Assembly (NCBI GenBank): GCA_041738235.1
Contig: JBGSQF010000013.1
Span: forward strand, 321,899 to 385,898
Length of the DNA stretch: 64,000 nucleotides
Direction of reading: 5' to 3'
Origin: Minisyncoccia bacterium
Lineage (GTDB): Bacteria > Patescibacteriota > Minisyncoccia > Moranbacterales > GCA-2747515
The notes beneath the pieces are model-generated. The model ran no database searches and was not told the origin of the DNA. It saw nothing but the letters and a program-made list of their open reading frames with translations. The number at the start of each line of letters is the position of its first letter. Positions within the stretch are counted from its first letter, which is position 1. The position numbers were made by a program, and so were the translations under genes. Below are positions 2,480-39,183 of the stretch, one piece after another.

Positions 2480-2491
2480 CAAATAGCAACC

Positions 2492-2526
2492 AAAAAAGAT
2501 GGTCTTAATGGCCATCTTTTTTTGTT
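2492..2526 (+). terminator. rho-independent terminator downstream of tRNA-Glu
   Basis: 8-bp stem AAAGATGG/CCATCTTT followed by a T-run of 7 or more. Confidence 0.5.
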
Positions 2527-2535
2527 TTTGTGTAG

Positions 2536-2672
2536 CCACGTATGGGATGAGAAGGGTATTTCAAAAAGGCAAACTGCTTTGCGTTTTTGAAAACCCGGGC
2601 TTTGGAGGAGAAAGCAAGGCATGTGCCAAAGGGCACGACTTGCGACGGAGGAAAAGGAATCCCATACGCGGT
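2536..2672 (+). repeat. ~137-nt structured direct repeat, copy 1 (attL-like; carries an 18-nt identical copy of the tRNA-Glu 3' end)
   Basis: About 90% identical to 6319-6456. Ends pair as a 10-bp stem CGTATGGGAT/ATCCCATACG. Internal hairpins GGCATGTGCC and GCAAG...CTTGC. The 3' end AATCCCATACGCGGTACA is identical to tRNA positions 2464-2481. Confidence 0.7.
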
Positions 2673-2678
2673 ACACTT

Positions 2679-2708
2679 AAAAAATGCCTTTTCAAAAGGC
2701 ATTTTTTT
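2679..2708. terminator. bidirectional rho-independent terminator
   Basis: A-run, palindrome ATGCCTT-TTCAA-AAGGCAT, then T7. Could terminate + transcription through repeat copy 1 and/or the minus-strand gene ending at 2888. Confidence 0.5.
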
Positions 2709-2710
2709 CT

Positions 2711-2738
2711 TACCTGTGTATGAGATTCGAACCTGATT
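2711..2738 (-). other. decayed inverted copy of the tRNA-Glu 3' half (att-site remnant)
   Basis: Minus-strand reading AATCAGGTTCGAATCTCATACACAGGTA aligns with tRNA AATCATGGGTTCGAATCCCATACGCGGTA, with a 2-nt deletion and 4 substitutions. Confidence 0.4.
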
Positions 2739-2887
2739 GTCGACACAATAACTCACTACCCACTCACTCACCGTATCTCTCCCCTTCTTTTTTCCAATAA
2801 AAAACCGACTCTTCCTTAAGTCGGCTGGGATGTCTCCCATTCGTGGCCATCTTTGGTCTTTGATTGCTCTCATCTTCTCTACTTTCC

Positions 2888-4537
2888 TCAATAGCAGAGA
2901 TAGTTGTCGTTCCAGGTATGCGGATCGGAAGGCTCCAGCCATTGCACACACCGCTTCCCTCCAATTGGTCCGGCACTGGACCAGGAGAAGTTAAGCGGAC
3001 TGCTCGGTGGCACGCAGAGGTAGTTGTCGTTCCAAGTATGCGGGTCAGCGCTTTCTCTAATCTGCGTACAGCGCATCCCTCCGATCGATCCGGCGCTGTT
3101 CCAACGCATCCCGTAGTCCTGGGTTGCGCAGAAGTAGTTATCCATCCAGGTATGCGGGTCAGCTCCTTCCGAGATCTGCGTGCAGTAGGCCCCGGAAACG
3201 GGTCCGGCATAGGACCAGACAAAAGTGCCGTCGGGACTTGTGGGGAAGTTAGTTACCGTGAACCCCATCGTCTGGGCATTATTGCCTTCGTTAGACTCAT
3301 GCAGGTTTCCCTGGTAGTCGGCGTAACATTGATAGGTGCGAGTTCCTGTGTCTCCCAGTCGGAAGCTATTGCTTATGTACTCCATCTTTTTTGCTCCGAC
3401 TCGCATGTCGCCTGCATCGACACCGTCATCTCCACGGCGGTTTCCTTGATTGATTTGGTAGTCAATGCGGAAACCGTTTGGGGCGTCACGGTTACCCACG
3501 TTTTGCACCTCGCAATACGGGTTGACGTAAGAATCCTTTCGAATGAATCCTCCCTGTCGAATAACCCAACCGTTTACCTTGAGGTACAGGTCGGAAACGA
3601 TGAGGTCGGCCTTCCAAGGCACGACATGGTAGGTGGCGCTTTTGCAGTTGTTGGCTTCGTTTAGCTCCGGAAGCCAGCCTTTGGAGTCCACGCAACAGGT
3701 GTACGTGCGATCTCCGGTGTTGCCCAGCTTCCAGCTGTCCCAGACCACTTCCGTGGCAATTTCACCCACTCTCGATTCTCCGGGGTCAAGGAAGTCCTCG
3801 TCACGCTCACTGCCATCCATACGGTGCGATACCTTGACTTGCAGAGGCGAGTCGATCTCGCCCAGATTGGTCATCTCGCAGTACGGATGCCAATAGTTAT
3901 CCTCCAATAATGTGGCGCCGTTGTAGTAGCGAGCACCCGTTATGGCATCAGAGAAATAGACGTCGGTGACGGTGAGGTCGGGACGCAGGCTTGTGACCTC
4001 GTACCGTTCCACACGGCTCTTGTTGTCACCCTCGTCATACTCTTCGACTTCGTTCCTGAAGTCGATCTCGGTGCGGAAGGCGATTGAGGAGATACCATCG
4101 GGGATGATGTAATCCTTCGTCTCCGTGATCGTCTCGCCTTCGTCGAGCTTGGCGATGGTGATGTAGCCCGTTTGCCATTGGACCCATTCTCCATCGTCGA
4201 TTGACACGAGATACTTGATGTCGATGGTGTCGGCATTGTCCCTCGTCTTCCAATTCCCCGCGTCGCCTCCCACAGCCTTCACCGCGACGCGGTTTCTGGC
4301 TTTCATACCGGGAAGGAATTGATCGTGTCCGGCGTAGAGCTCGTTGCCGTCGACACCGAGGATATCGGTGTCGTTTTTGAGGTTGACGGGGTCGAGGGGT
4401 TGAGGGTCGGTGGGATCAGATGTTGATCCGCCCGCTCCCGAGGTTGTAACAGTGATAGTAACTCCCTCGCAATCGGAAGCGAATGCCTCCGGAAGCAGAA
4501 GGAATAATGCAGTGACGAACAGTATGCCATATCTCAT
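2888..4537 (-). CDS. secreted repeat protein (549 aa) with CARDB-like segments and three C-terminal ~45-aa Cys repeats (C..DPHTW.DNY.C)
   Basis: ATG at 4537 with SD GGAGGAAAT upstream. Signal peptide MRYGILFVTALFLLLPEAFA. Three C-terminal ~130-nt tandem coding repeats. Elevated GC (~55%). The longer ORF start at 4663 overlaps the upstream gene and lacks an RBS. Confidence 0.7.
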   Translation of the reverse strand: MRYGILFVTALFLLLPEAFASDCEGVTITVTTSGAGGSTSDPTDPQPLDPVNLKNDTDILGVDGNELYAGHDQFLPGMKARNRVAVKAVGGDAGNWKTRDNADTIDIKYLVSIDDGEWVQWQTGYITIAKLDEGETITETKDYIIPDGISSIAFRTEIDFRNEVEEYDEGDNKSRVERYEVTSLRPDLTVTDVYFSDAITGARYYNGATLLEDNYWHPYCEMTNLGEIDSPLQVKVSHRMDGSERDEDFLDPGESRVGEIATEVVWDSWKLGNTGDRTYTCCVDSKGWLPELNEANNCKSATYHVVPWKADLIVSDLYLKVNGWVIRQGGFIRKDSYVNPYCEVQNVGNRDAPNGFRIDYQINQGNRRGDDGVDAGDMRVGAKKMEYISNSFRLGDTGTRTYQCYADYQGNLHESNEGNNAQTMGFTVTNFPTSPDGTFVWSYAGPVSGAYCTQISEGADPHTWMDNYFCATQDYGMRWNSAGSIGGMRCTQIRESADPHTWNDNYLCVPPSSPLNFSWSSAGPIGGKRCVQWLEPSDPHTWNDNYLCY

Positions 4538-4580
4538 GGCCGGATTTCCTCCGTTTTTGGGTTGATTGGTTGACATGTGA

Positions 4581-5300
4581 TCACTTGATGCACATGTCAC
4601 CTTTACCGAAGAGTGCATCATAGCTGACATCGTCCGGGTAATGCACCTGGAAGATGTCCGCACACACAGGCCAGGCGTACGTTCTCACGATCTGTCGGTT
4701 GCTGTCGAGTCCGTACCAGGCTTGTGCTTTGATGCACGAGGTGTCGAAGGGGTACCAGGCGTAGTTACCGACCTTGCGGACGGTGAACTGGTTGCCGGGG
4801 ATGGTGGCGGGGTCTTTCTCGTAGATGAACCCACGGAGGGTCCAACTGCCCTTAACATCAGATCCAAGATCCGTATTACGGTGATAAGTGTTACCGCTTC
4901 CTGGGTAGTAAGTGGCGTGATTAATGCCATCCTCAAACCCCTGGCTCTTATACCAATCCATCTCCAAAACATCGAAAGATCCGTCGGTGTATGCCTCCTC
5001 GACGTAAGCGACATGGCCTTCGAACTCCGCGATTGCGCCATCTTTCGGCTCGAACCCGACCATGAAGTCCAGGTTCCGAAGCTTATCGGACCACTGTCCG
5101 CCGTTCCATCCACTTCCGGTTATCGCCGAGGCGATGTCCGGGCGTTTGTATGCGGCCCACCAGGTGCAGTTTCCATGGTCACCACACTCGAAATGGCTCG
5201 TCGTGGACGTATATCCATAACACACCGAGTCACCAGCCAGCGCATTCACTCCGAAGAAAAACACGCAGACGCCAATCAGCCGAGCAAGTAAATTGCTCAT
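4581..5300 (-). CDS. secreted CHAP-domain peptidoglycan hydrolase/amidase
   Basis: Signal peptide. CHAP signature with Cys in GNCTWWAAY and downstream His in GHVAYVE. GC about 55%. Confidence 0.7.
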   Translation of the reverse strand: MSNLLARLIGVCVFFFGVNALAGDSVCYGYTSTTSHFECGDHGNCTWWAAYKRPDIASAITGSGWNGGQWSDKLRNLDFMVGFEPKDGAIAEFEGHVAYVEEAYTDGSFDVLEMDWYKSQGFEDGINHATYYPGSGNTYHRNTDLGSDVKGSWTLRGFIYEKDPATIPGNQFTVRKVGNYAWYPFDTSCIKAQAWYGLDSNRQIVRTYAWPVCADIFQVHYPDDVSYDALFGKGDMCIK

Positions 5301-5413
5301 GATATAAATCCTCTTTCAAGTTGTTAAGGGACGCACATTCTTTGAGAAACGGATATTACCGCTTCAGAGATCGCACGAGAGGTCATGCGATCAAAAAGAG
5401 GTAAAACTGTATC

Positions 5414-6103
5414 TTACTTTTTGAGAATGATACTCTCTGCCATTGTATCAAGAATTTCTTTTCTTATGATATTTTCTTGAGTCATTCTGGCAGTAAGTGT
5501 AAGTGAAATCTTCTTATTGATAATATAGTAAGACTGTTGCATTTGAGAATTTTCATACGTAGCCGAGCAATATGCAATAAAAGGTAATTTTTTGTCATTA
5601 AGAATTTTACATTCAGCAGAGGGATTATTGTCTTTTGCCATGTAGAATATGGAGTCTATCTCATCTTGAGGAGTTCCAGCATCCGAGGTTGCTGTTCCCC
5701 TGTCCGTAATCACGATCTCTGTATTATTGAAAATATCTAATGGAACATTTGATCCTATACCAGAGAAAATTCCAATGTCTGGATGTTTCTCAATATCAAA
5801 ATCTGGGTTATTCGTAATTATTTGCGCATTTTCGTTTGCATCTAGCACTTTCCAATACCACTCTTTCGGGAATTTAATCGTGAAATATTCCGTTTCTTTT
5901 GTTTGCCAATGACTCACATCGAGATCGACATCTGTCACAAAATTTTGATTCTGTTCTTCTTGCTTCCTTTGCTCTTCTTCGGTCTGTTTTTGATTCATTT
6001 CTATCCCCCTCTCCACCTTCCCCGAATACCACAAAACACCCCCGGCAATGAGGACGGCAACAACAAAGAAAATGCTGAGGAATGCGATGCTTTTTTTGGT
6101 CAT
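5414..6103 (-). CDS. membrane-anchored hypothetical protein (N-terminal TM, Gln/Glu-rich linker, beta-rich ectodomain)
   Basis: The ORF track start is a TTG. The in-frame ATG (MTKKSIAFLSIFFVVAVLIAGG) immediately precedes a TM helix. AT-rich (~33% GC), unlike the adjacent island genes. Confidence 0.45.
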   Translation of the reverse strand: MTKKSIAFLSIFFVVAVLIAGGVLWYSGKVERGIEMNQKQTEEEQRKQEEQNQNFVTDVDLDVSHWQTKETEYFTIKFPKEWYWKVLDANENAQIITNNPDFDIEKHPDIGIFSGIGSNVPLDIFNNTEIVITDRGTATSDAGTPQDEIDSIFYMAKDNNPSAECKILNDKKLPFIAYCSATYENSQMQQSYYIINKKISLTLTARMTQENIIRKEILDTMAESIILKK

Positions 6104-6318
6104 AGGGATGATAATAGATTGAATATATTTCTTGTTCAATTTACTATAATTAGCGGGATATGTCAATGTTTTTTAAGCCCGAATTTTTAAAAATACTCCA
6201 AAATCCCCCATCATTTCCCCTACCCTACTCCAATCCAAAGTTCCAAGAACATCACACAGGGGGTACAACTAAGGTAAACAAAAAATACACCCTTCCCAAG
6301 GATGTATTTTTTTTGTAA

Positions 6319-6456
6319 GCGCGTATGGGATGAGAAGGGTATTTCAAAAAGGCAAACTGCTTTGCATTTTTGAAAACCCGGGCTTTGGAGGAGAAAGCGA
6401 GGCATGTGCCAAAGGCACGCCTCGCGACGGAGGAAAAGGAATCCCGTACGCGGTTC
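6319..6456 (+). repeat. ~137-nt structured direct repeat, copy 2 (attR-like; tRNA-Glu 3' end with 2 mismatches)
   Basis: Same architecture as copy 1. Compensatory changes keep the pairing (GCAAG/CTTGC becomes GCGAG/CTCGC; an A.C mismatch at the stem end becomes G-C). Preceded by a terminator-like hairpin ATACACCCTT/AAGGATGTAT plus T8 at about 6285-6314. Confidence 0.7.
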
Positions 6457-6659
6457 AACTCAAGAGCATCTTTTTAAAGTGCATTCTACCTATTTTAGGG
6501 ATTACTCATCTAACTCAATCCCTTCTTTATAATTAGATCCTCATCAACTATCGCTACTGAACAGGAGGTAGAGATAAAAAATCCCCCCCTCTAGCTGATA
6601 AGGGATACACAAAAAAATATGTCACTACCAAAAAAATACAAGTTACCTTGACTTTCCTC

Positions 6660-9600
6660 CTACCACGTCCACGGATTCCACAATACAAAATTCTTAGTAG
6701 GTCGTGTCAAAGCTGGAGGAGTGACGGATTGTTGCGTCTGTTGAGTTTCTTGGGTTGAATTCGTTGGGTTTTGGATTTCTTCTGTGACTTGTCTTTCTGT
6801 ACGTGCTCCTTGCACACTCCCCTCTTCTGCTTGAGTTTGCGTTTCTGTCTGTGATGATACTTGTTGTATCTGACTTACGTAGTTTAGTACAATCGAAGTA
6901 TCTACTCTGTTTCCCGCTTTATCATAGGCTCGAATATTGAGAAGATACGTTCCAAGAGGAAGAGATTCGGGAAGAAGATAAAAAGACTCTTCAACACCTT
7001 GTCTTCTCCAAGACTTTAGAACTTTTCCATTCATATCGACAAGTTGAACCTTATAATAGGAAAGACCCGATCCATTAGGATTGTCAGCTGCAAGAAAATC
7101 TATTCTCTCTTTTCTGGTGAGAGTCTTTTTTTCTGGAAGAGGATTAATGAAAAAGGGATCGGTCTTATCAGTGATAAGAGTAAAGAAGTCAGAGATATCT
7201 GATCTATTCCCAGTGCTATCGATATAGCGTACGGCATATTGATTTTTTCCTTCCTTACTAGAAAGATTGAAGTTCCAAGAGCCCTTCTCATTTATAGAGA
7301 TAGTTTTGAGTTTTTTAGTACCTCCTTTATCTGTTTTGGTATAGAGAGTTATGGTTCCATTTCTTGCTTTTGGATTCTTTCCCTTAAGTCTGGGAGTGGT
7401 ATCGGATCGATAGTTAACATCTTTGAAAGAAATAGATTCCTCATTAGCAGAAAGGTTGCTCTTATTGTCATTTTGGAATTGTTCAAGGTTGGATTCTGAA
7501 GTTTGAAGCGTGGCGGAGTGAATGACAGGAGTGATATTGGGATCTTGTGTAGAAAGAGTTGCTTTCCAAGTAAAATTATTTGCTTTGGTATACTGGGGAA
7601 ATGTTATGGGAGGAGTGAAATCAGCCCAAGTAGATCCGTTGTCTATTGAGTATTGATACTCAATGCTAGTGCCTTCTGGAATCGTTTGATCTGTCTGGAA
7701 AGAGAGGAGTTCATTGGTATTTGGGAAAGAGAGGGTTTGTGAGGTGTAAGTGCCTGAATCAGAGATAAAAAGTCCGTCCTCTTGCCGAGCATATTTGATC
7801 TCCACGCTATCAAGGCTGGGCGTAATGGAATTGTCTTGAGTCGCAAGAACTGCCTTATAGCGAAAGTTGCGGGATAAGTTAACAGGCAGAGCATAAATGC
7901 CAGGATCGGTTCCCAAACTTGTGTATGTTTGACCTTCATCAAAAGAGTAGAACATTTCTATAGAAGTTCCTTCGGGAATAGTGGCTTCCCAAGATAGCTC
8001 AGAATACACCTCTTTTTGGTACGTGTCGGAAATATATTCTAAAGAAAAAAAATAATTCGTATCAAGAACGTTCGTATCTGAATCATTGTCCACATCGGTA
8101 CAGAGATCTGTATTTGATCCTCCAATAGCATAAATCCCACCATTTACCAACTCAGTTGATACTCTATTGAGACCAGTTGGTAATATCCCAATAATATCCC
8201 ATTTATCGTACTCCGGGTCATAGCTATATATATCCTTTGCACGAATAAGCGCATCATCTTTTCCTCCAATATATATAAGCTTACCATTTATAACTACCGT
8301 ATCACCACCACCTCGATATGAAGGCAGAAATGCCAAATCCGTATCCCATGTATCCGTGGCTGGATCATAACTTGCCATAGAGTTGGACACCATACCATCA
8401 CAATCCCGCCTCGCCCCAACGATATACAACTTTCCATTAATAAATTGACCCGAAGCCTGATTCATTTTTACAACAGGGGCAGGTGTTCCGGCCTCCCAAG
8501 TATCTGTTTCTGGATCATAGATCTCCATCTCAGTAGATGAAAGACCAGAACAATCTAAACCACCACTAATGTAGACAGGACCACCTCCCACGACATAGAT
8601 CTTCCCGTTATATACTCCTCCGACAGCTCCTTCCCTCACCCGACTCATAGGTGCGCCCGCTGTCCAAGTATCCGTTTCTGGGTCATATATTTCTACAGAA
8701 GAAAGTTCTGTCTTTGTAGGATAAACTCCGGTAGCACCTCCAAAGACATAGAGTTTGCTATCGTACGCAACAACCATTGGTCTCGTTCTTGTTTGCACCA
8801 TTGGGGATTTAGTCTCCCATGTATCGGTTGCTGTGTCGTAAACCAATAATGTATTATGTCCGCAATTTCCACAACTCATCTTTCCCCCACCCACAACATA
8901 TATTTTTGAACCAATAACAGCACTTCCCGCGCCTTTTGTCTCTTCGGGAAGAGGCGCTTTGTTTTGCCAAGTGTCACTCGATTCAGCATATACGGTTTTA
9001 ACATAAACTCCCTCACTATTATATACGTTATCTATATCAACAACCGAAAGACCGCTTTTATTATCCTCTTCATAGAAAGCCCCTGATTCACTCTTTTTGA
9101 CACTAACATACAAAAGATGATGAGTACCATCCAGAAAAGAATTGTGAACGCTATTATTTACGATTTCTGGAGTTGAAACATTATTATACGTTTTGACCAA
9201 AACATCATCTGCTGGACTCACTGTTCCCCGTGTATCAATAACCGAGAGGGCACCATTATTAATATTGGGATCATTTTTACTACTTACATATAAGAGATCG
9301 TTCGCAGAATCTAAAAAGGCATGCACTACATAATTATTCGCTATCGCTGGGGTGGTAGTTGTTTTATAAGTGATCACCAAAACATCGTCAGTGGCGGTCA
9401 CAGTTCCTTGCGTGTTGATCACGGTAAGACCACCCCCTAAAGTCCCCACATACAAAAGGTTATGCACCGAATCCATAAAGGAGTACGAAACATTGTTACC
9501 CCCGATCGCTGGGGTGGTAGTTGTTTTATAAGTGATCACCAAAACATCGTCAGTGGCGGTCACAGTTCCTTGCGTGTTGATCACGGTAAGACCACCACTT

Positions 9601-10436
9601 GTACTAACGTAAAGGAGATGCGTCGTCTCATCCAAGAAAGCATGCGATACGGAATTATGTCCTATCGCAGGTGTGGTGGTAGTTTTGTATGTTTTTACAA
9701 GTGTGTCATCACCAGCGCTGACCGTTCCTTGCGTGTTGATCACGGTAAGACCTCCACCCAAAGTAGCTATATAGAGAAGATTACGTAAATCATCAAGAAA
9801 AGCATATTTAACAGTGCTGTCATCGATTGCTGGGGTTGTAGTAGTGGTGTAGGTAGTAACCAAAACATCATCAGAGGGAGAAACAGTTCCTTGCGTGTTG
9901 ATCACAGATAATCCCTGACCATCAATGCTTATGTAGAGAAGATCGTTCTTTAAGAATGAGTTATGTATCATATTCCCGGGCAATGCTGGAGTCGATTCTG
10001 TGGAGTAAGTAATAATCAAACTGTCATCAGTTGGATCAACGGTATTACGCGTGTCTATAACTGAAACGCCTAATGAAGTATTAATATACAAAAGACCCTT
10101 AGAGACATCGAGAAATGAACTCCCTGTATTCCTGCTACTAAGCCCCGCAAAAGATCCGCTGGAATATAAATAACTTTTACCAAGAGTTACTTTCCCCTCA
10201 CCATTACGTGAAACTCTTGTAACAAGAGGACTATTATTTACGTAACCTGAATTAAAATCTCCGTCTGTGGTATCTGTATGAATGGTAGTTTTATATTTTA
10301 GACGTAAGTCTCCCGGAATTTGATAAAGATCAATATTTTCATCAGTTGTCCCCATCTCCCAATCCTCCTGAGAAGTAAAAACTTGCCCCTGACTTGAGGC
10401 GTAGACGAACTGCAAAGAAAAAAAGGGGGCCAACAA
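6660..10436 (-). CDS. giant secreted surface protein (1258 aa): YVTN-like beta-propeller repeats, Kelch-repeat propeller, Ig/FN3-like domains, Gln/Thr-rich C-terminus
   Basis: Six or seven ~54-aa repeats LLYV..GGGLTV(I)NTQGTV...TTTTPAI. Kelch-like blades (KIYVVGGG, KLYVFGG, YDPETDTW). The annotated start is TTG. A canonical signal peptide lies upstream in another frame (see findings). Confidence 0.75.
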   Translation of the reverse strand: MLAPFFSLQFVYASSQGQVFTSQEDWEMGTTDENIDLYQIPGDLRLKYKTTIHTDTTDGDFNSGYVNNSPLVTRVSRNGEGKVTLGKSYLYSSGSFAGLSSRNTGSSFLDVSKGLLYINTSLGVSVIDTRNTVDPTDDSLIITYSTESTPALPGNMIHNSFLKNDLLYISIDGQGLSVINTQGTVSPSDDVLVTTYTTTTTPAIDDSTVKYAFLDDLRNLLYIATLGGGLTVINTQGTVSAGDDTLVKTYKTTTTPAIGHNSVSHAFLDETTHLLYVSTSGGLTVINTQGTVTATDDVLVITYKTTTTPAIGGNNVSYSFMDSVHNLLYVGTLGGGLTVINTQGTVTATDDVLVITYKTTTTPAIANNYVVHAFLDSANDLLYVSSKNDPNINNGALSVIDTRGTVSPADDVLVKTYNNVSTPEIVNNSVHNSFLDGTHHLLYVSVKKSESGAFYEEDNKSGLSVVDIDNVYNSEGVYVKTVYAESSDTWQNKAPLPEETKGAGSAVIGSKIYVVGGGKMSCGNCGHNTLLVYDTATDTWETKSPMVQTRTRPMVVAYDSKLYVFGGATGVYPTKTELSSVEIYDPETDTWTAGAPMSRVREGAVGGVYNGKIYVVGGGPVYISGGLDCSGLSSTEMEIYDPETDTWEAGTPAPVVKMNQASGQFINGKLYIVGARRDCDGMVSNSMASYDPATDTWDTDLAFLPSYRGGGDTVVINGKLIYIGGKDDALIRAKDIYSYDPEYDKWDIIGILPTGLNRVSTELVNGGIYAIGGSNTDLCTDVDNDSDTNVLDTNYFFSLEYISDTYQKEVYSELSWEATIPEGTSIEMFYSFDEGQTYTSLGTDPGIYALPVNLSRNFRYKAVLATQDNSITPSLDSVEIKYARQEDGLFISDSGTYTSQTLSFPNTNELLSFQTDQTIPEGTSIEYQYSIDNGSTWADFTPPITFPQYTKANNFTWKATLSTQDPNITPVIHSATLQTSESNLEQFQNDNKSNLSANEESISFKDVNYRSDTTPRLKGKNPKARNGTITLYTKTDKGGTKKLKTISINEKGSWNFNLSSKEGKNQYAVRYIDSTGNRSDISDFFTLITDKTDPFFINPLPEKKTLTRKERIDFLAADNPNGSGLSYYKVQLVDMNGKVLKSWRRQGVEESFYLLPESLPLGTYLLNIRAYDKAGNRVDTSIVLNYVSQIQQVSSQTETQTQAEEGSVQGARTERQVTEEIQNPTNSTQETQQTQQSVTPPALTRPTKNFVLWNPWTW

Positions 10437-20828: not shown

Positions 20829-23348
20829 TCATGGAAACTTTGGAAATGCTGGGGGTGGCGAGGGAGCATTTGCCCGATTAAGACGATCTTCTATCTCTTT
20901 TTTTACAACATCCTTGTCTCGACCATAGCGCAAGCGAGACAATTCTTTTACTATCTCCACCTGTTCAGGTCGACCCTCTTTTGGTATATAGGTTTTCATA
21001 TTAAAAGGTTTTGTAGATTCATTGTTCATAAGTGCTCGCACAAAACAACTGTAATTATCAGCGTTCACCAGATCGTTGGCGGTAAATATCGGTTCAAATT
21101 GCTTTTCCAAGAATTCTGCATCTTCTGGTCCCACGCGAAATGCCGCCATTGATCCCACGTTCCCAAAGACCGCTTTAGAAATTTCCTCAGAAAGTTGTCC
21201 AATGAATTGATGTGCGATCGTCAGGTCCAAACGATACTTTCTCGCTTCTGAGAGGATCTGTGAAATAGAATCGGTTGTCACATTCTGAAACTCATCAATG
21301 TACAAATAAAAGTCACGACGTGTTGCCTCCGGCATATCTACACGCGACAATGCTGCCATCAACAATTTTCCGACTATCACCATACCAAGCAGATAACTGT
21401 TTGTTTCACCGATCTTTCCCTTGGAGAGATTGATAAGCAAGATCTTTCCTTCGTCCATAACCTTCCGAAAATCGATCGTGCTGACTTGCTGCGAAATGAT
21501 AGGTCGCATCATATCGTTAGCGATAAATTGCGTAAGTTTTGAAGTGATATAGGGTACCATATTGGCAAGCGATGCCTCTCCCCCAGCCTTCTCGGCCTCC
21601 TTCTGCCAAAAGTCCTTTACAATAGGATTCCCACACTTTGTAAGTTTATAACGACGAAATTGGTCGTCGGCGAGCACCTTTGGGATCTCCATTAACGTCG
21701 ACCCCGATTCCGGATCTTCCATAACCAAGAGCATGGCATTTCGCATATATTGCTCAAACATCGGACCCCCCGTTTGTTTGAGATCGTACAGCTTGTCAAA
21801 GATATTGATCATCTCATTGATCACGAAAGTTTTCTCCTCCGGACGATGGTACTCGAGCATATTAAGCCCAAAGGGGCGTTCAATGTCCGAGGGATCAAAA
21901 TGTACAACATCTTCCAAACGTTCTGCGGGGATCGATGCAAGGAGTGACTCAATGGCATCCCCGTGCGGATCGATAAAACACATTCCTTTACCATTGGCGA
22001 TATCCTGTTTTGCCAAACCCTCAAGAAAAACAGATTTACCAACACCTGTCTGTCCGATCACATACAAGTGTCGCCGTCGGTCTGAGTCGGAAAGGCGAAT
22101 ATCCGTCTTTGTGCCACGATAATCATTAAAGCCAAGTGCAAGCCCTTCTTTTGGAATGTTGGTAGGAGGAGGAGCAGCACCTGCCTTAAGCCATTTGATC
22201 TTTGGCGTTTGCGTCGTGGATATAGGAAAGTGAAACATACCCGCCAACTCTTCCACGCCCAAAACAACACTATTCCCCTTATTGAAAGTCCTCATTATAT
22301 AGTCAAACACTACGGCTTTCTTTTGGATCCTCTTTTTGACAACGAGATAATTAATATCAGCACGCTCAAACTGCCCAAAGGCATTTTCCATCTGTCCGAG
22401 TATTTGATCCGCCCGTTGGCGAGTCTTCGCCGAGGCAAGAAGACGAATATTCACAAAAAAAGCTCCTTTTCTCGTTTTTTGCTCAATGGCTTTTACAAGT
22501 TCCTGCTCATCAGGGGTCAACTGTATCGGATCCTTTTCCGACGGCATTTTTCGCTCTTGATCCTTACGCTTTCCTCCACCAGAGGCAACCACATCCAAAA
22601 AACCCTTACCCACCCCACCTGCAACATCTTTAATGATCGATTTACGAACATCCTTGAGCTGTTTTCCCTGTTGCATCTTATGAGCGATATTTCTCCCGGT
22701 ACTTCGCCATCCATCCCCTGCCGGCACGAGAAGGAATTGAATAGCCGCCCCTTCCTCTATCGTCTCAAGTCGACTAAGCGCATTACTGATCTCATTCATC
22801 GGATCGACGTCCATCTCCTCGTACGTCAGTAGCGGCAACGCAGATGAACCCTTGAGCGTGAGAGCAGAAACAGCGTGTTCGGAATCTGAGGTAAAGATCG
22901 TATAGTCGGAAGTTTGTTCGATAAGCGCATCTGGAAAAAAACTGTGGATCTGCTTCTCTATCGCCTCGCGGTATCGCCTTGGAAAAGAAACATAAAAAAA
23001 TATCTCCTCACTATTCGACGGATTCGCCATTTCCAGAGAGAACGTTGCGTCCCCCATTGGATTTCCAAACATAGAATGGCGTTTCTTTAGCCCTGCGAGC
23101 GAAGCGAGTAGTTGTTCCATTGCTCCTATTTCTTCTTTCCACTGTTCAGGATTGCCTCCAGTCTCCCCCTGTTTCTTGCCCCCTCCAAGAGTAACTCGAA
23201 CGACCTCCAGATCCATATTCAAAGACGCCTGTACCTTTCGACGAAAGACCACGATAGATTGAAAAAGAAAAACACCGCCACTTATAAATGCTGCTATCCC
23301 AGCAATAAGTATCAGTGAAAGAAACAAAAGCTGAATTGGATCTGTCAT
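20829..23348 (-). CDS. type IV secretion/conjugation-type ATPase (VirB4/TrbE-like or VirD4/TraG-like), 839 aa
   Basis: N-terminal TM helix and a ~400-aa N-domain. Walker A LYVIGQTGVGKS followed by IDPHGD, Walker B YLYIDEFQNV, motif RKYRLDLTIAHQFIGQL. Confidence 0.6.
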   Translation of the reverse strand: MTDPIQLLFLSLILIAGIAAFISGGVFLFQSIVVFRRKVQASLNMDLEVVRVTLGGGKKQGETGGNPEQWKEEIGAMEQLLASLAGLKKRHSMFGNPMGDATFSLEMANPSNSEEIFFYVSFPRRYREAIEKQIHSFFPDALIEQTSDYTIFTSDSEHAVSALTLKGSSALPLLTYEEMDVDPMNEISNALSRLETIEEGAAIQFLLVPAGDGWRSTGRNIAHKMQQGKQLKDVRKSIIKDVAGGVGKGFLDVVASGGGKRKDQERKMPSEKDPIQLTPDEQELVKAIEQKTRKGAFFVNIRLLASAKTRQRADQILGQMENAFGQFERADINYLVVKKRIQKKAVVFDYIMRTFNKGNSVVLGVEELAGMFHFPISTTQTPKIKWLKAGAAPPPTNIPKEGLALGFNDYRGTKTDIRLSDSDRRRHLYVIGQTGVGKSVFLEGLAKQDIANGKGMCFIDPHGDAIESLLASIPAERLEDVVHFDPSDIERPFGLNMLEYHRPEEKTFVINEMINIFDKLYDLKQTGGPMFEQYMRNAMLLVMEDPESGSTLMEIPKVLADDQFRRYKLTKCGNPIVKDFWQKEAEKAGGEASLANMVPYITSKLTQFIANDMMRPIISQQVSTIDFRKVMDEGKILLINLSKGKIGETNSYLLGMVIVGKLLMAALSRVDMPEATRRDFYLYIDEFQNVTTDSISQILSEARKYRLDLTIAHQFIGQLSEEISKAVFGNVGSMAAFRVGPEDAEFLEKQFEPIFTANDLVNADNYSCFVRALMNNESTKPFNMKTYIPKEGRPEQVEIVKELSRLRYGRDKDVVKKEIEDRLNRANAPSPPPAFPKFP

Positions 23349-38749: not shown

Positions 38750-39183
38750 GGGGTTGTTTAGATTCGACAGGTTGTTATTTGACATAAGTAAGCAAGCCGG
38801 TTCACGCGCGGTAACACCGAAACCTTCTCCGCGCACTCGATAAGTGCAAACTTCATCACAAAAGCCAAAGACGCTATTGCGCGAGCATTTAGCACCTCTT
38901 TCGCTACCGCCCTGGCTTAATTGCCGAGGCCATCGAATTTCGTGACTCCTTATAACGAATGTTCGGTGTCATATGTATAAGGATAGTCCTCTTCCCCCTT
39001 CTCGAAGGAAGAAGGACGAAACCTCCGAGACCGCCTTAGATGTACTTTGTTTGTTTCTGGGCATCTTCGGTTGGTTCAGGTGAAGGGAAGTAATGCGCCT
39101 TTTATCTGTCAAACAAACTCTGCTTGAAGAAAGCTTTGTCATATCATCTCTGGACATGGGTGCAATTCCCATCAACTCCACCA
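38750..39183 (+). ncRNA. ssrA: tmRNA (ssrA), ~434 nt
   Basis: 5' GGGGTTGTTTAGATTCGACAGG matches the tmRNA consensus GGGGCUGAUUCUGGAUUCGACGGG. 3' GGACATGGGTGCAATTCCCATCAACTCCACCA matches the T-arm plus acceptor and encoded CCA. Acceptor pairs GGGGUUG/CAACUCC. In-frame tag ORF ends ...FATALA-TAA (stop 38918-38920). Lies just downstream of smpB. Confidence 0.8.

Follow-up and report, generated by a model that had tools for sequence, protein, structure and literature searches.

Two adjacent genes on the minus strand of a 64,000-nucleotide (nt) stretch of contig JBGSQF010000013.1 from a Minisyncoccia bacterium were analyzed (this whole stretch is referred to below as the window; features are on its minus strand unless stated otherwise). 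The first gene, at positions 4581–5300, encodes a secreted peptidoglycan hydrolase of 239 amino acids (aa) with a Pfam CHAP domain, and the second, at 2888–4537 (stop codon 2888–2890), encodes a secreted 549-aa protein with CARDB-like modules and three Cys-containing repeats at its C-terminus. Both open reading frames (ORFs) were found by ORF calling and translation where a preliminary description of the sequence had placed them. The genes are separated by 43 nt, a Shine-Dalgarno sequence precedes the ATG of each, and a consensus scan detected one terminator-like hairpin and T run 3′ of the second gene (2803–2826). They were therefore taken to form an operon, with the hairpin as its probable end. 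The GC content was 0.549 for the CHAP gene and 0.544 for the CARDB/Cys gene compared to 0.447 for the whole window, in agreement with the elevated GC described previously, and the excess was located in third codon positions (GC3 of 0.66–0.67 versus 0.34–0.53 in 13 other genes of the window). The same GC3 jump was present in an independent assembly of a close relative (L001), which shows that it is not an assembly artefact.

The CHAP protein starts with a hydrophobic, signal-like N-terminus (MSNLLARLIGVCVFFFGVNALA, followed by GD) that ends in ALA before GD, giving a predicted signal peptide of about residues 1–22 (5235–5300). The Pfam CHAP model (PF05257) matched residues 42–114 (4959–5177) with 34.1 bits against a gathering cutoff of 26. 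Three catalytic residues were identified: Cys45 in the motif GNCTWW (5166–5168), His96 in GHVAYVE (5013–5015) and Glu113 in LEMD (4962–4964). All three were invariant in an alignment of 18 sequences; in an alignment of 56 sequences Cys45 and His96 were invariant and Glu113 was at least 90% conserved. They also aligned with the corresponding residues of the CHAP structures 2lrj, 2k3a, and 5t1q (phmmer). The AlphaFold2 (AF2) model of the protein (predicted local distance difference test score, pLDDT, of 86) was matched by Foldseek with probability 1.0 to 5t1q, 2lrj, 4cgk (PcsB), 2k3a, and 9eum, and model and matches agree on a papain-like alpha+beta fold. The Cys/Trp-rich, conserved C-terminal region of about 90 aa (residues ~150–239; 4584–4853) had no structural match by Foldseek. 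All 55 relatives found for the protein contain PF05257, and they are either metagenomic proteins or annotated as Moraniibacteriota, which are placed in the Patescibacteria/Parcubacteria group. CHAP-family enzymes cut stem-peptide or amide bonds of peptidoglycan. The earlier proposal of a secreted CHAP hydrolase with a Cys/His dyad was thus borne out, with no catalytic residue missing on alignment, and sequence and model directly support a credible secreted enzyme with a complete Cys-His-Glu site in a predicted papain-like fold.

The start of the 549-aa protein was assigned to the ATG at 4537, which has a GGAGGA Shine-Dalgarno sequence 9 nt upstream and gives an N-terminus matching those of the orthologues in L001 and in a distant Moraniibacteriota genome (L002). 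In the public annotation (P0294; 580 aa, 100% identical), this gene begins 31 codons further upstream (4538–4663 region). It thereby overlaps the 3′ end of the CHAP gene, as does the longest ORF, which has a GTG start and encodes 591 aa. The N-terminus is signal-like (MRYGILFVTALFLLLPEAFA, followed by SD) and ends in AFA before SD, with a predicted signal peptide of residues 1–20 (4478–4537). Three CARDB-like modules follow at ~3989–4387, ~3617–3988, and ~3254–3616, and then a linker and the Cys-repeat domain (2891–3253). Pfam CARDB (PF07705) matched in three stretches with 62.5 bits against a cutoff of 22.7 (E = 4.6e-17; best residues 339–423). The orthologue in L002 showed 56% protein identity, and DNA identity to L001 was 87% across the cluster. 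In L001 the CARDB gene (5364–7017) is split by a frameshift after “...RPDL” into ORFs of 196 and 340 aa, which points to a pseudogene or else an assembly error. The CARDB label refers to structure and has no defined function attached to it. Translation and the Pfam match agree with the previous description of a secreted CARDB-like protein with three C-terminal repeats, and sequence and model directly support a predicted stalk of three immunoglobulin-like CARDB modules ending in a compact three-repeat domain. This protein resembles many bacterial and archaeal CARDB surface proteins in being secreted and composed of multiple modules, and differs from them in that the Moraniibacteriota array is a common scaffold, alternately headed by CHAP or M23 and tailed by CARDB or Cys domains (see below).

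The C-terminal 120 aa (2891–3250) were modeled by AF2 as a single globular unit made of three repeats of ~40 aa: R1 (3128–3223; WSYAGPVSGAYCTQISEGADPHTWMDNYFC), R2 (3014–3109; WNSAGSIGGMRCTQIRESADPHTWNDNYLC), and R3 (2894–2989; WSSAGPIGGKRCVQWLEPSDPHTWNDNYLC). All three fit the pattern S.AG.IGG.RC.Q..E..DPHTW.DNY.C. R2 and R3 were identical in 22 of 30 residues, and the underlying DNA was itself found to be a direct repeat of three copies (59 nt, 66–80% identity, spacing of 120 and 114 nt); the repeats are therefore not a chance pattern. The family consensus is three times W-S-x-A-G-P-I-x-G-x-x-C-x-Q-I-x-E-x-A-D-P-H-T-W-x-D-N-Y-L-C. Each repeat contains two conserved cysteines, and one disulfide is probably formed within each repeat.

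The repeat motif had not been recognized when first described, and the searches gave the same result: the domain had nothing significant in Pfam (even at E ≤ 10), NCBIfam, PHROGs, or PDB sequences, neither with the single sequence nor with the family profile, for which nothing below E = 0.3 was found in the PDB, and a literature search by motif strings yielded nothing relevant. The AF2 model, based on an alignment of 63 sequences, had a pLDDT of 92.4 and a predicted template modeling score (pTM) of 0.86. In the model the domain is all-beta with nine strands, three per repeat, and Foldseek found no fold match in PDB or BFVD.

A word-indexed search yielded 99 relatives with up to 70% identity, most of them proteins of 140–200 aa consisting of a signal peptide and one trimer of repeats only. 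An exhaustive profile search yielded 1131 representatives at E ≤ 1e-3 and 491 at E ≤ 1e-30 (counted at 50% clustering of public protein data), many of them multidomain. The motif was mostly present three times (120 proteins) or six times (28 proteins) per protein with a period of 38–41 aa. Since the counts cluster at three and six, the family unit was taken to be the trimer. As judged from the sequence searches and the model, the Cys repeats are one ~115-aa domain of a large cross-kingdom family without a curated model or a detectable solved fold.

A beta-trefoil identity of the domain was considered on account of an NCBIfam match to the Rv1419 lectin model (17.4 bits over 32 residues against a cutoff of 200). 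It was ruled out by the strand count, as the model does not have the twelve strands of a beta-trefoil, and by the lack of a Foldseek match; the Ricin_B (CBM13) and B_lectin profiles of Pfam did not match the domain even at E ≤ 10. The domain resembles the Ricin_B (beta-trefoil) and B_lectin (bulb-type beta-prism II) domains in its size of ~115–120 aa, in its three ~40-aa repeats with a conserved aromatic/acidic/Asn motif in each, and in being either a small secreted protein of its own or an appendage of secreted hydrolases. By analogy with such three-fold lectins, it likely offers three equivalent sites. It differs from them in having no sequence relationship to them, a conserved Cys pair per repeat, three strands per repeat rather than four in the model, and no Foldseek match to a trefoil, a prism or any other PDB fold. 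Several Cys-domain proteins carry a ricin-B domain in addition.

The domain partners were surveyed in two sets. Among 96 multidomain representatives, the domain was found together with Peptidase_M23 (12), CARDB (6), Astacin (5), CHAP (4), Matrixin (4), VanY (3), Amidase_2 (2), Trypsin (2), Ricin-B (2), and GH25 (1), and single cases included S8, C-type lectin, and DM9. About one quarter of the multidomain members bear cell-wall hydrolase domains, and others occur with proteases, phospholipases, or lectins. Among the best 80 loci in named genomes, the partners were Ricin_B (13), Matrixin (7), S8 (5), VanY (5), Astacin (5), M23 (4), MauG-type peroxidase (4), and phosphatidylinositol-specific phospholipase C (PI-PLC; 3), and phospholipase C, lipase, phospholipase A2 (PLA2), GH25, B_lectin, and tectonin were also present. 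Attachment to many unrelated lytic enzymes and lectins that are secreted, together with stand-alone forms, argues for a binding or targeting module.

By taxon, the best 80 loci included 45 from Myxococcota, 15 from Pseudoalteromonas, one from Bdellovibrionales, and two from the candidate phyla radiation (CPR; Moraniibacteriota and Saccharibacteria). The domain was also found in the cnidarian Clytia hemisphaerica (P0047, P0048, and P0079) and in EukProt entries (P0044, P0050, and P0172). The eukaryotic copies are up to 59% identical to the CPR copy and located on megabase scaffolds, either as small secreted proteins or as fusions with WSC, astacin/CUB, trypsin, C-type lectin, or DM9 domains. 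Their occurrence suggests either cross-kingdom transfer or unusually strong constraint. P0157, P0158, and four loci join the domain to a di-haem cytochrome c peroxidase of the MauG type or to a MopE-like motif for Cu binding. Tryptophans are modified by MauG enzymes, and the Cys domain itself contains invariant Trp residues.

A full-length search showed that in Moraniibacteriota one CARDB array serves as a scaffold that carries CHAP or M23 heads and CARDB or Cys-domain tails. The Moranbacteria protein P0308 combines in one chain a CHAP domain that belongs to the same subfamily as the one in the window (42% identity, E = 1e-30), CARDB, a Cys trimer (60% identity), and further CARDB. P0296 consists of CHAP and a matching CARDB array, and P0295, P0304, and P0316 of M23 and a matching CARDB array, and in a further Moraniibacteriota genome (L003) M23 is followed by a CARDB-like module and a Cys trimer with 74% identity. 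Gene fusion is a classical sign that separately encoded proteins work together.

Comparison with the relatives further showed that the Cys domain occupies an exchanged segment. The L001 and L002 orthologues end in a further CARDB-type module (“...FPTVERT(I/M)SFYLR”). In the alignment of the window with L001, identity per 30 nt was ~70–80%, dropped to ~25–45% within ~3280–2900, and was 65–90% downstream. As both orthologues end in a CARDB module and identity collapses only there, a cassette of ~390 nt (approximately 2901–3290), non-homologous to L001, was exchanged in frame in the lineage of the window. The cassette junction, GFTVTNFPTSPDG(T/S)FVWSYAGPVSGA, recurs in P0259, which makes a paralogous CPR gene the probable donor. 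In its DNA, the cassette was 74% identical to L003 and 71% to a Myxococcaceae gene.

We consider it probable, at roughly 0.6, that the operon pair encodes a modular system for cell-wall lysis that is secreted, split over two proteins, and equipped with a binding head. In such a system, the secreted CHAP enzyme would cut peptidoglycan, and the CARDB partner would be a separate, non-catalytic stalk. The two proteins would act together, as the fusions in relatives suggest. The terminal Cys domain would be a multivalent binding module directing lytic enzymes to a cell-envelope ligand, a role to which its domain partners and stand-alone secreted forms point. The exchange of an ancestral CARDB-type module for the Cys domain through the ~390-nt cassette would then represent a change of targeting head in the lineage of the window. 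The idea of cell-wall remodeling or attack put forward in the preliminary description is consistent with this arrangement.

Such a system would resemble the modular CHAP and M23 hydrolases, known examples of which are the staphylococcal Sle1/LysK-type CHAP enzymes with LysM or SH3b domains and PcsB of Streptococcus pneumoniae. Like these, it has a secreted, papain-like Cys-His-Glu CHAP domain (fold matches 5t1q, 2lrj, 2k3a, and 4cgk) and combines a catalytic module with non-catalytic repeats presumed to place the enzyme on the wall. Unlike in these, the parts in the window are two polypeptides of one operon that are fused only in relatives, the accessory modules are CARDB and an uncatalogued Cys domain instead of LysM, SH3b, coiled coil, or choline-binding repeats, and the CHAP protein has its own conserved C-terminal region without a fold match. 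The enzyme and the stalk belong to known families and the logic of a hydrolase with a binding module is well known; it is the family of the head domain that is new.

The target would more probably be the envelope of another cell, for instance the host of a presumed epibiont, than the organism's own wall, a view that we hold weakly. It is favored by the concentration of the Cys-domain family in predators, its coupling to non-wall lytic enzymes, the exchangeability of the head, the atypical codon usage, and the variable neighborhood of the cluster (L002 and L083). Several points weigh against a lytic system of this kind. The ligand of the Cys domain, as far as its partners indicate, need not be peptidoglycan, because these also include proteases, lipases, phospholipases, and di-haem peroxidases. 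The case for a physical complex of the CHAP and CARDB proteins comes from the fusions, the signal peptides of both proteins were judged by eye, and the epibiotic lifestyle is assumed from the taxon. Moreover, the cluster lies directly downstream of mraZ, mraW, ftsI, and a mur ligase gene in the window and in L001, which fits a housekeeping autolysin equally well.

A housekeeping autolysin, in which the CHAP enzyme and its CARDB partner would remodel or split the organism's own peptidoglycan at division and the Cys domain would bind the own wall, is accordingly a possibility of some weight, held by us to be less probable than the split lytic system. Gene position speaks for it, as the cluster directly follows mraZ-mraW-ftsL-like-ftsI-mur ligase in the window and adjoins ftsI-mur ligase in L001, and so do the best NCBIfam and fold neighbors of the CHAP protein, among them the division hydrolase PcsB. 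The CHAP family is also conserved across Moraniibacteriota, with the 55 relatives mentioned above, and the organism makes peptidoglycan, as a penicillin-binding protein and a Mur ligase are present. However, the neighborhood is not kept: in L002 the cluster is located among glycosyltransferase genes and genes of unknown function, and in L083 beside copper-ATPase and tRNA-synthetase genes. GC3 is strongly atypical in three genomes, the targeting head varies between close relatives, which is unusual for a core division enzyme, and the Cys domain occurs mainly in bacteria that are predatory or antagonistic and is joined to a variety of non-wall lytic enzymes.

More tentatively, the split lytic system may be extended to the Cys domain as a whole: the trimer would be a trivalent module of new fold with a cell-envelope or glycan ligand, spread by horizontal gene transfer among predators (Myxococcota, Pseudoalteromonas, and Bdellovibrionales), CPR epibionts, and eukaryotes, and in the window it would have been swapped onto the stalk so as to retarget the CHAP system to a particular host envelope. 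In eukaryotes such as cnidarians, the domain may on this proposal serve microbe recognition. We regard this extension as conceivable but doubtful.

It appears quite unlikely that the Cys domain has no targeting role and instead inhibits the attached hydrolases or serves as their pro-domain, binds metal, has a redox function, or acts as a stabilizing cap. Its invariant residues are acidic or His/Trp (E, D-P-H-T-W, and D-N) and could bind metal, some members are fused to MauG-type di-haem peroxidases and the MopE-like Cu-binding motif, and stand-alone secreted versions exist. On the other hand, the domain, which can occupy either end of a protein and occurs one to three times, is found on at least 10 unrelated catalytic families and on lectins, a spread that is the pattern of a binding module and not of a class-specific inhibitor, and its carrier in the window is a stalk protein that is not catalytic.

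A prophage lysis remnant or phage cargo, with the CHAP protein as an endolysin and the repeat protein as a tail-fibre or receptor-binding protein, had also been proposed previously on the basis of sequence; CHAP domains are indeed frequent in endolysins, there is weak similarity (28–30%) to CHAP regions of Staphylococcus phages, GC3 is atypical next to a tRNA gene and flanking direct repeats, and the product of the gene at 5414–6166 has weak, low-complexity PHROG matches to Rz-like spanins (E = 0.002–0.07), but this origin is highly improbable, since the full repeat protein had no PHROG match at E ≤ 0.1, tail-fibre families included, and no tblastn match in 50,697 INPHARED phage records, the Cys domain was found in one of 2.9 million IMG/VR contigs and had no BFVD fold match, both proteins have apparent Sec-type signal peptides, the cluster is conserved in three cellular genomes, and holin, integrase, capsid, portal, and tail genes are absent within ordinary chromosomal flanks. 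These flanks contain mraZ, mraW, ftsL-like, ftsI, mur ligase, M50 protease, gyrB, a resistance-nodulation-division (RND) pump, and tmRNA. PHROG matches in the flanks were restricted to Kelch repeats, cellular-type proteins (the RND pump and a HerA-type ATPase), and polymerase-exonuclease families, the last of these a 192-aa exonuclease gene at 880–1458; capsid, portal, and tail-fibre PHROG families matched none of the flanking genes.

Upstream of the CHAP gene lies a third gene (5414–6166; likely start MTKKSIAF...) with a low GC content of 0.36 and a GC3 of 0.37. In its product, a charged linker connects an N-terminal membrane anchor to a globular domain; no family match to it was found in Pfam or NCBIfam. 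It showed 39% identity to the product of the gene upstream of CHAP in L002, and a homologue is present in L001. A gene for a membrane-anchored protein of ~240–255 aa was found upstream of the hydrolase gene at every locus examined (L002, 7157–7876; L003, 1709–2476; L083, 5112–5840). In L003 and L083 it precedes fused hydrolases and is of similar size and architecture, sharing with the version in the window only this architecture and a “W..Y....F...YP..W” start; these two proteins had weak PsbP_2 matches of 25–26 bits. The membrane-anchored protein could be an immunity protein, a regulator, or an anchoring partner of the hydrolase.

The two secreted proteins had been described as the cargo of a genomic island, which was only partly supported. 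A tRNA-Glu(CUC) gene is located at 2405–2480, and two direct repeats on the plus strand, copy A at 2525–2703 (179 nt) and copy B at 6308–6485 (88% identical to A), bracket the CARDB/Cys gene, the CHAP gene, and the low-GC gene at 5414–6166. The two described genes are thus present between the repeats, but not as the only ones. The 19-nt 3′ end of tRNA-Glu was found repeated inside the direct repeats, at 2657–2675 (100%) and 6439–6457 (89%). The 179-nt element is predicted to fold into a structure of several stems (minimum free energy of −61.8 kcal/mol, z = −6.8 for copy A, and −63.3 kcal/mol, z = −6.2 for copy B) with a closing stem of 10–12 bp, the 3′ strand of which is the T-stem/acceptor 3′ end of tRNA-Glu. 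It matched no Rfam family and had no further copy in the window, its conserved 32-nt core had no match in a metagenome scan, and among 83 other fetched loci it was absent save for a partial copy in L001. The element could represent a duplicated att site, a small RNA derived from a tRNA, or a mobile element. Directly after a terminator hairpin at 2679–2707, an inverted partial tRNA 3′ fragment (GTATGAGATTCGAACC, 2718–2733), complementary to the T-arm of tRNA-Glu, was found and is kept in L001; it may be the scar of an older integration in opposite orientation.

Like tRNA-integrated islands, the locus thus adjoins a tRNA gene and has direct repeats including part of the tRNA 3′ end; its GC3 is raised in the CHAP and CARDB genes and 0.37 in the third. 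Unlike these, it has no integrase or other mobility gene (no integrase or recombinase was found among the three credible genes within 2481–6485 in Pfam, NCBIfam, or PHROGs), its repeat is 179 nt long with a strong predicted structure, low GC is seen in one of the three genes between the repeats, and the close relative keeps the genes in place without copy B. The cluster of the membrane-protein, CHAP, and CARDB genes is syntenic in L001, which has the same flanks, and in L002. No presence/absence polymorphism was seen in the one close relative compared, as L001 contains the three genes between the mur ligase gene and the matching downstream intergenic sequence. The difference between L001 and the window is a 4.3-kb stretch with repeat copy B and a Kelch gene that is missing from L001; there, 260 nt separate the mur ligase gene from the membrane-protein gene. 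The GC3 offset of the CHAP and CARDB genes was seen in L001 too and more weakly in L002, and because it is common to all three genomes, any transfer must be old.

The Kelch gene (6660–10436) encodes a secreted protein of 1258 aa with a Kelch beta-propeller and Big_13 domains and ~40-residue “TVINTQGTV..DD.LV.TY” repeats. Further away in the window, a gene at 20829–23348 encodes an 839-aa HerA/DUF87-type ATPase with a full-length match to phrog_5156 of unknown function (E = 1e-84), adjoined by small ORFs without family matches; this protein may be a VirB4-like ATPase for secretion or conjugation, a type that has been reported for Patescibacteria. A tmRNA gene is present on the plus strand at 38750–39183 (Rfam, 98.5 bits), with the tag peptide ANFITKAKDAIARAFSTSFATALA.

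Little is established on how CPR bacteria act upon the cells they are thought to depend on. The locus described here offers a concrete module in which an enzyme and a stalk are combined with an exchangeable head. Fused and split versions occur in nature and can be compared, and a close relative with a different head allows the heads to be compared directly. The Cys domain could supply a new affinity module for cell-wall-targeting enzymes, and its ligand, once found, would annotate more than 1000 protein clusters.

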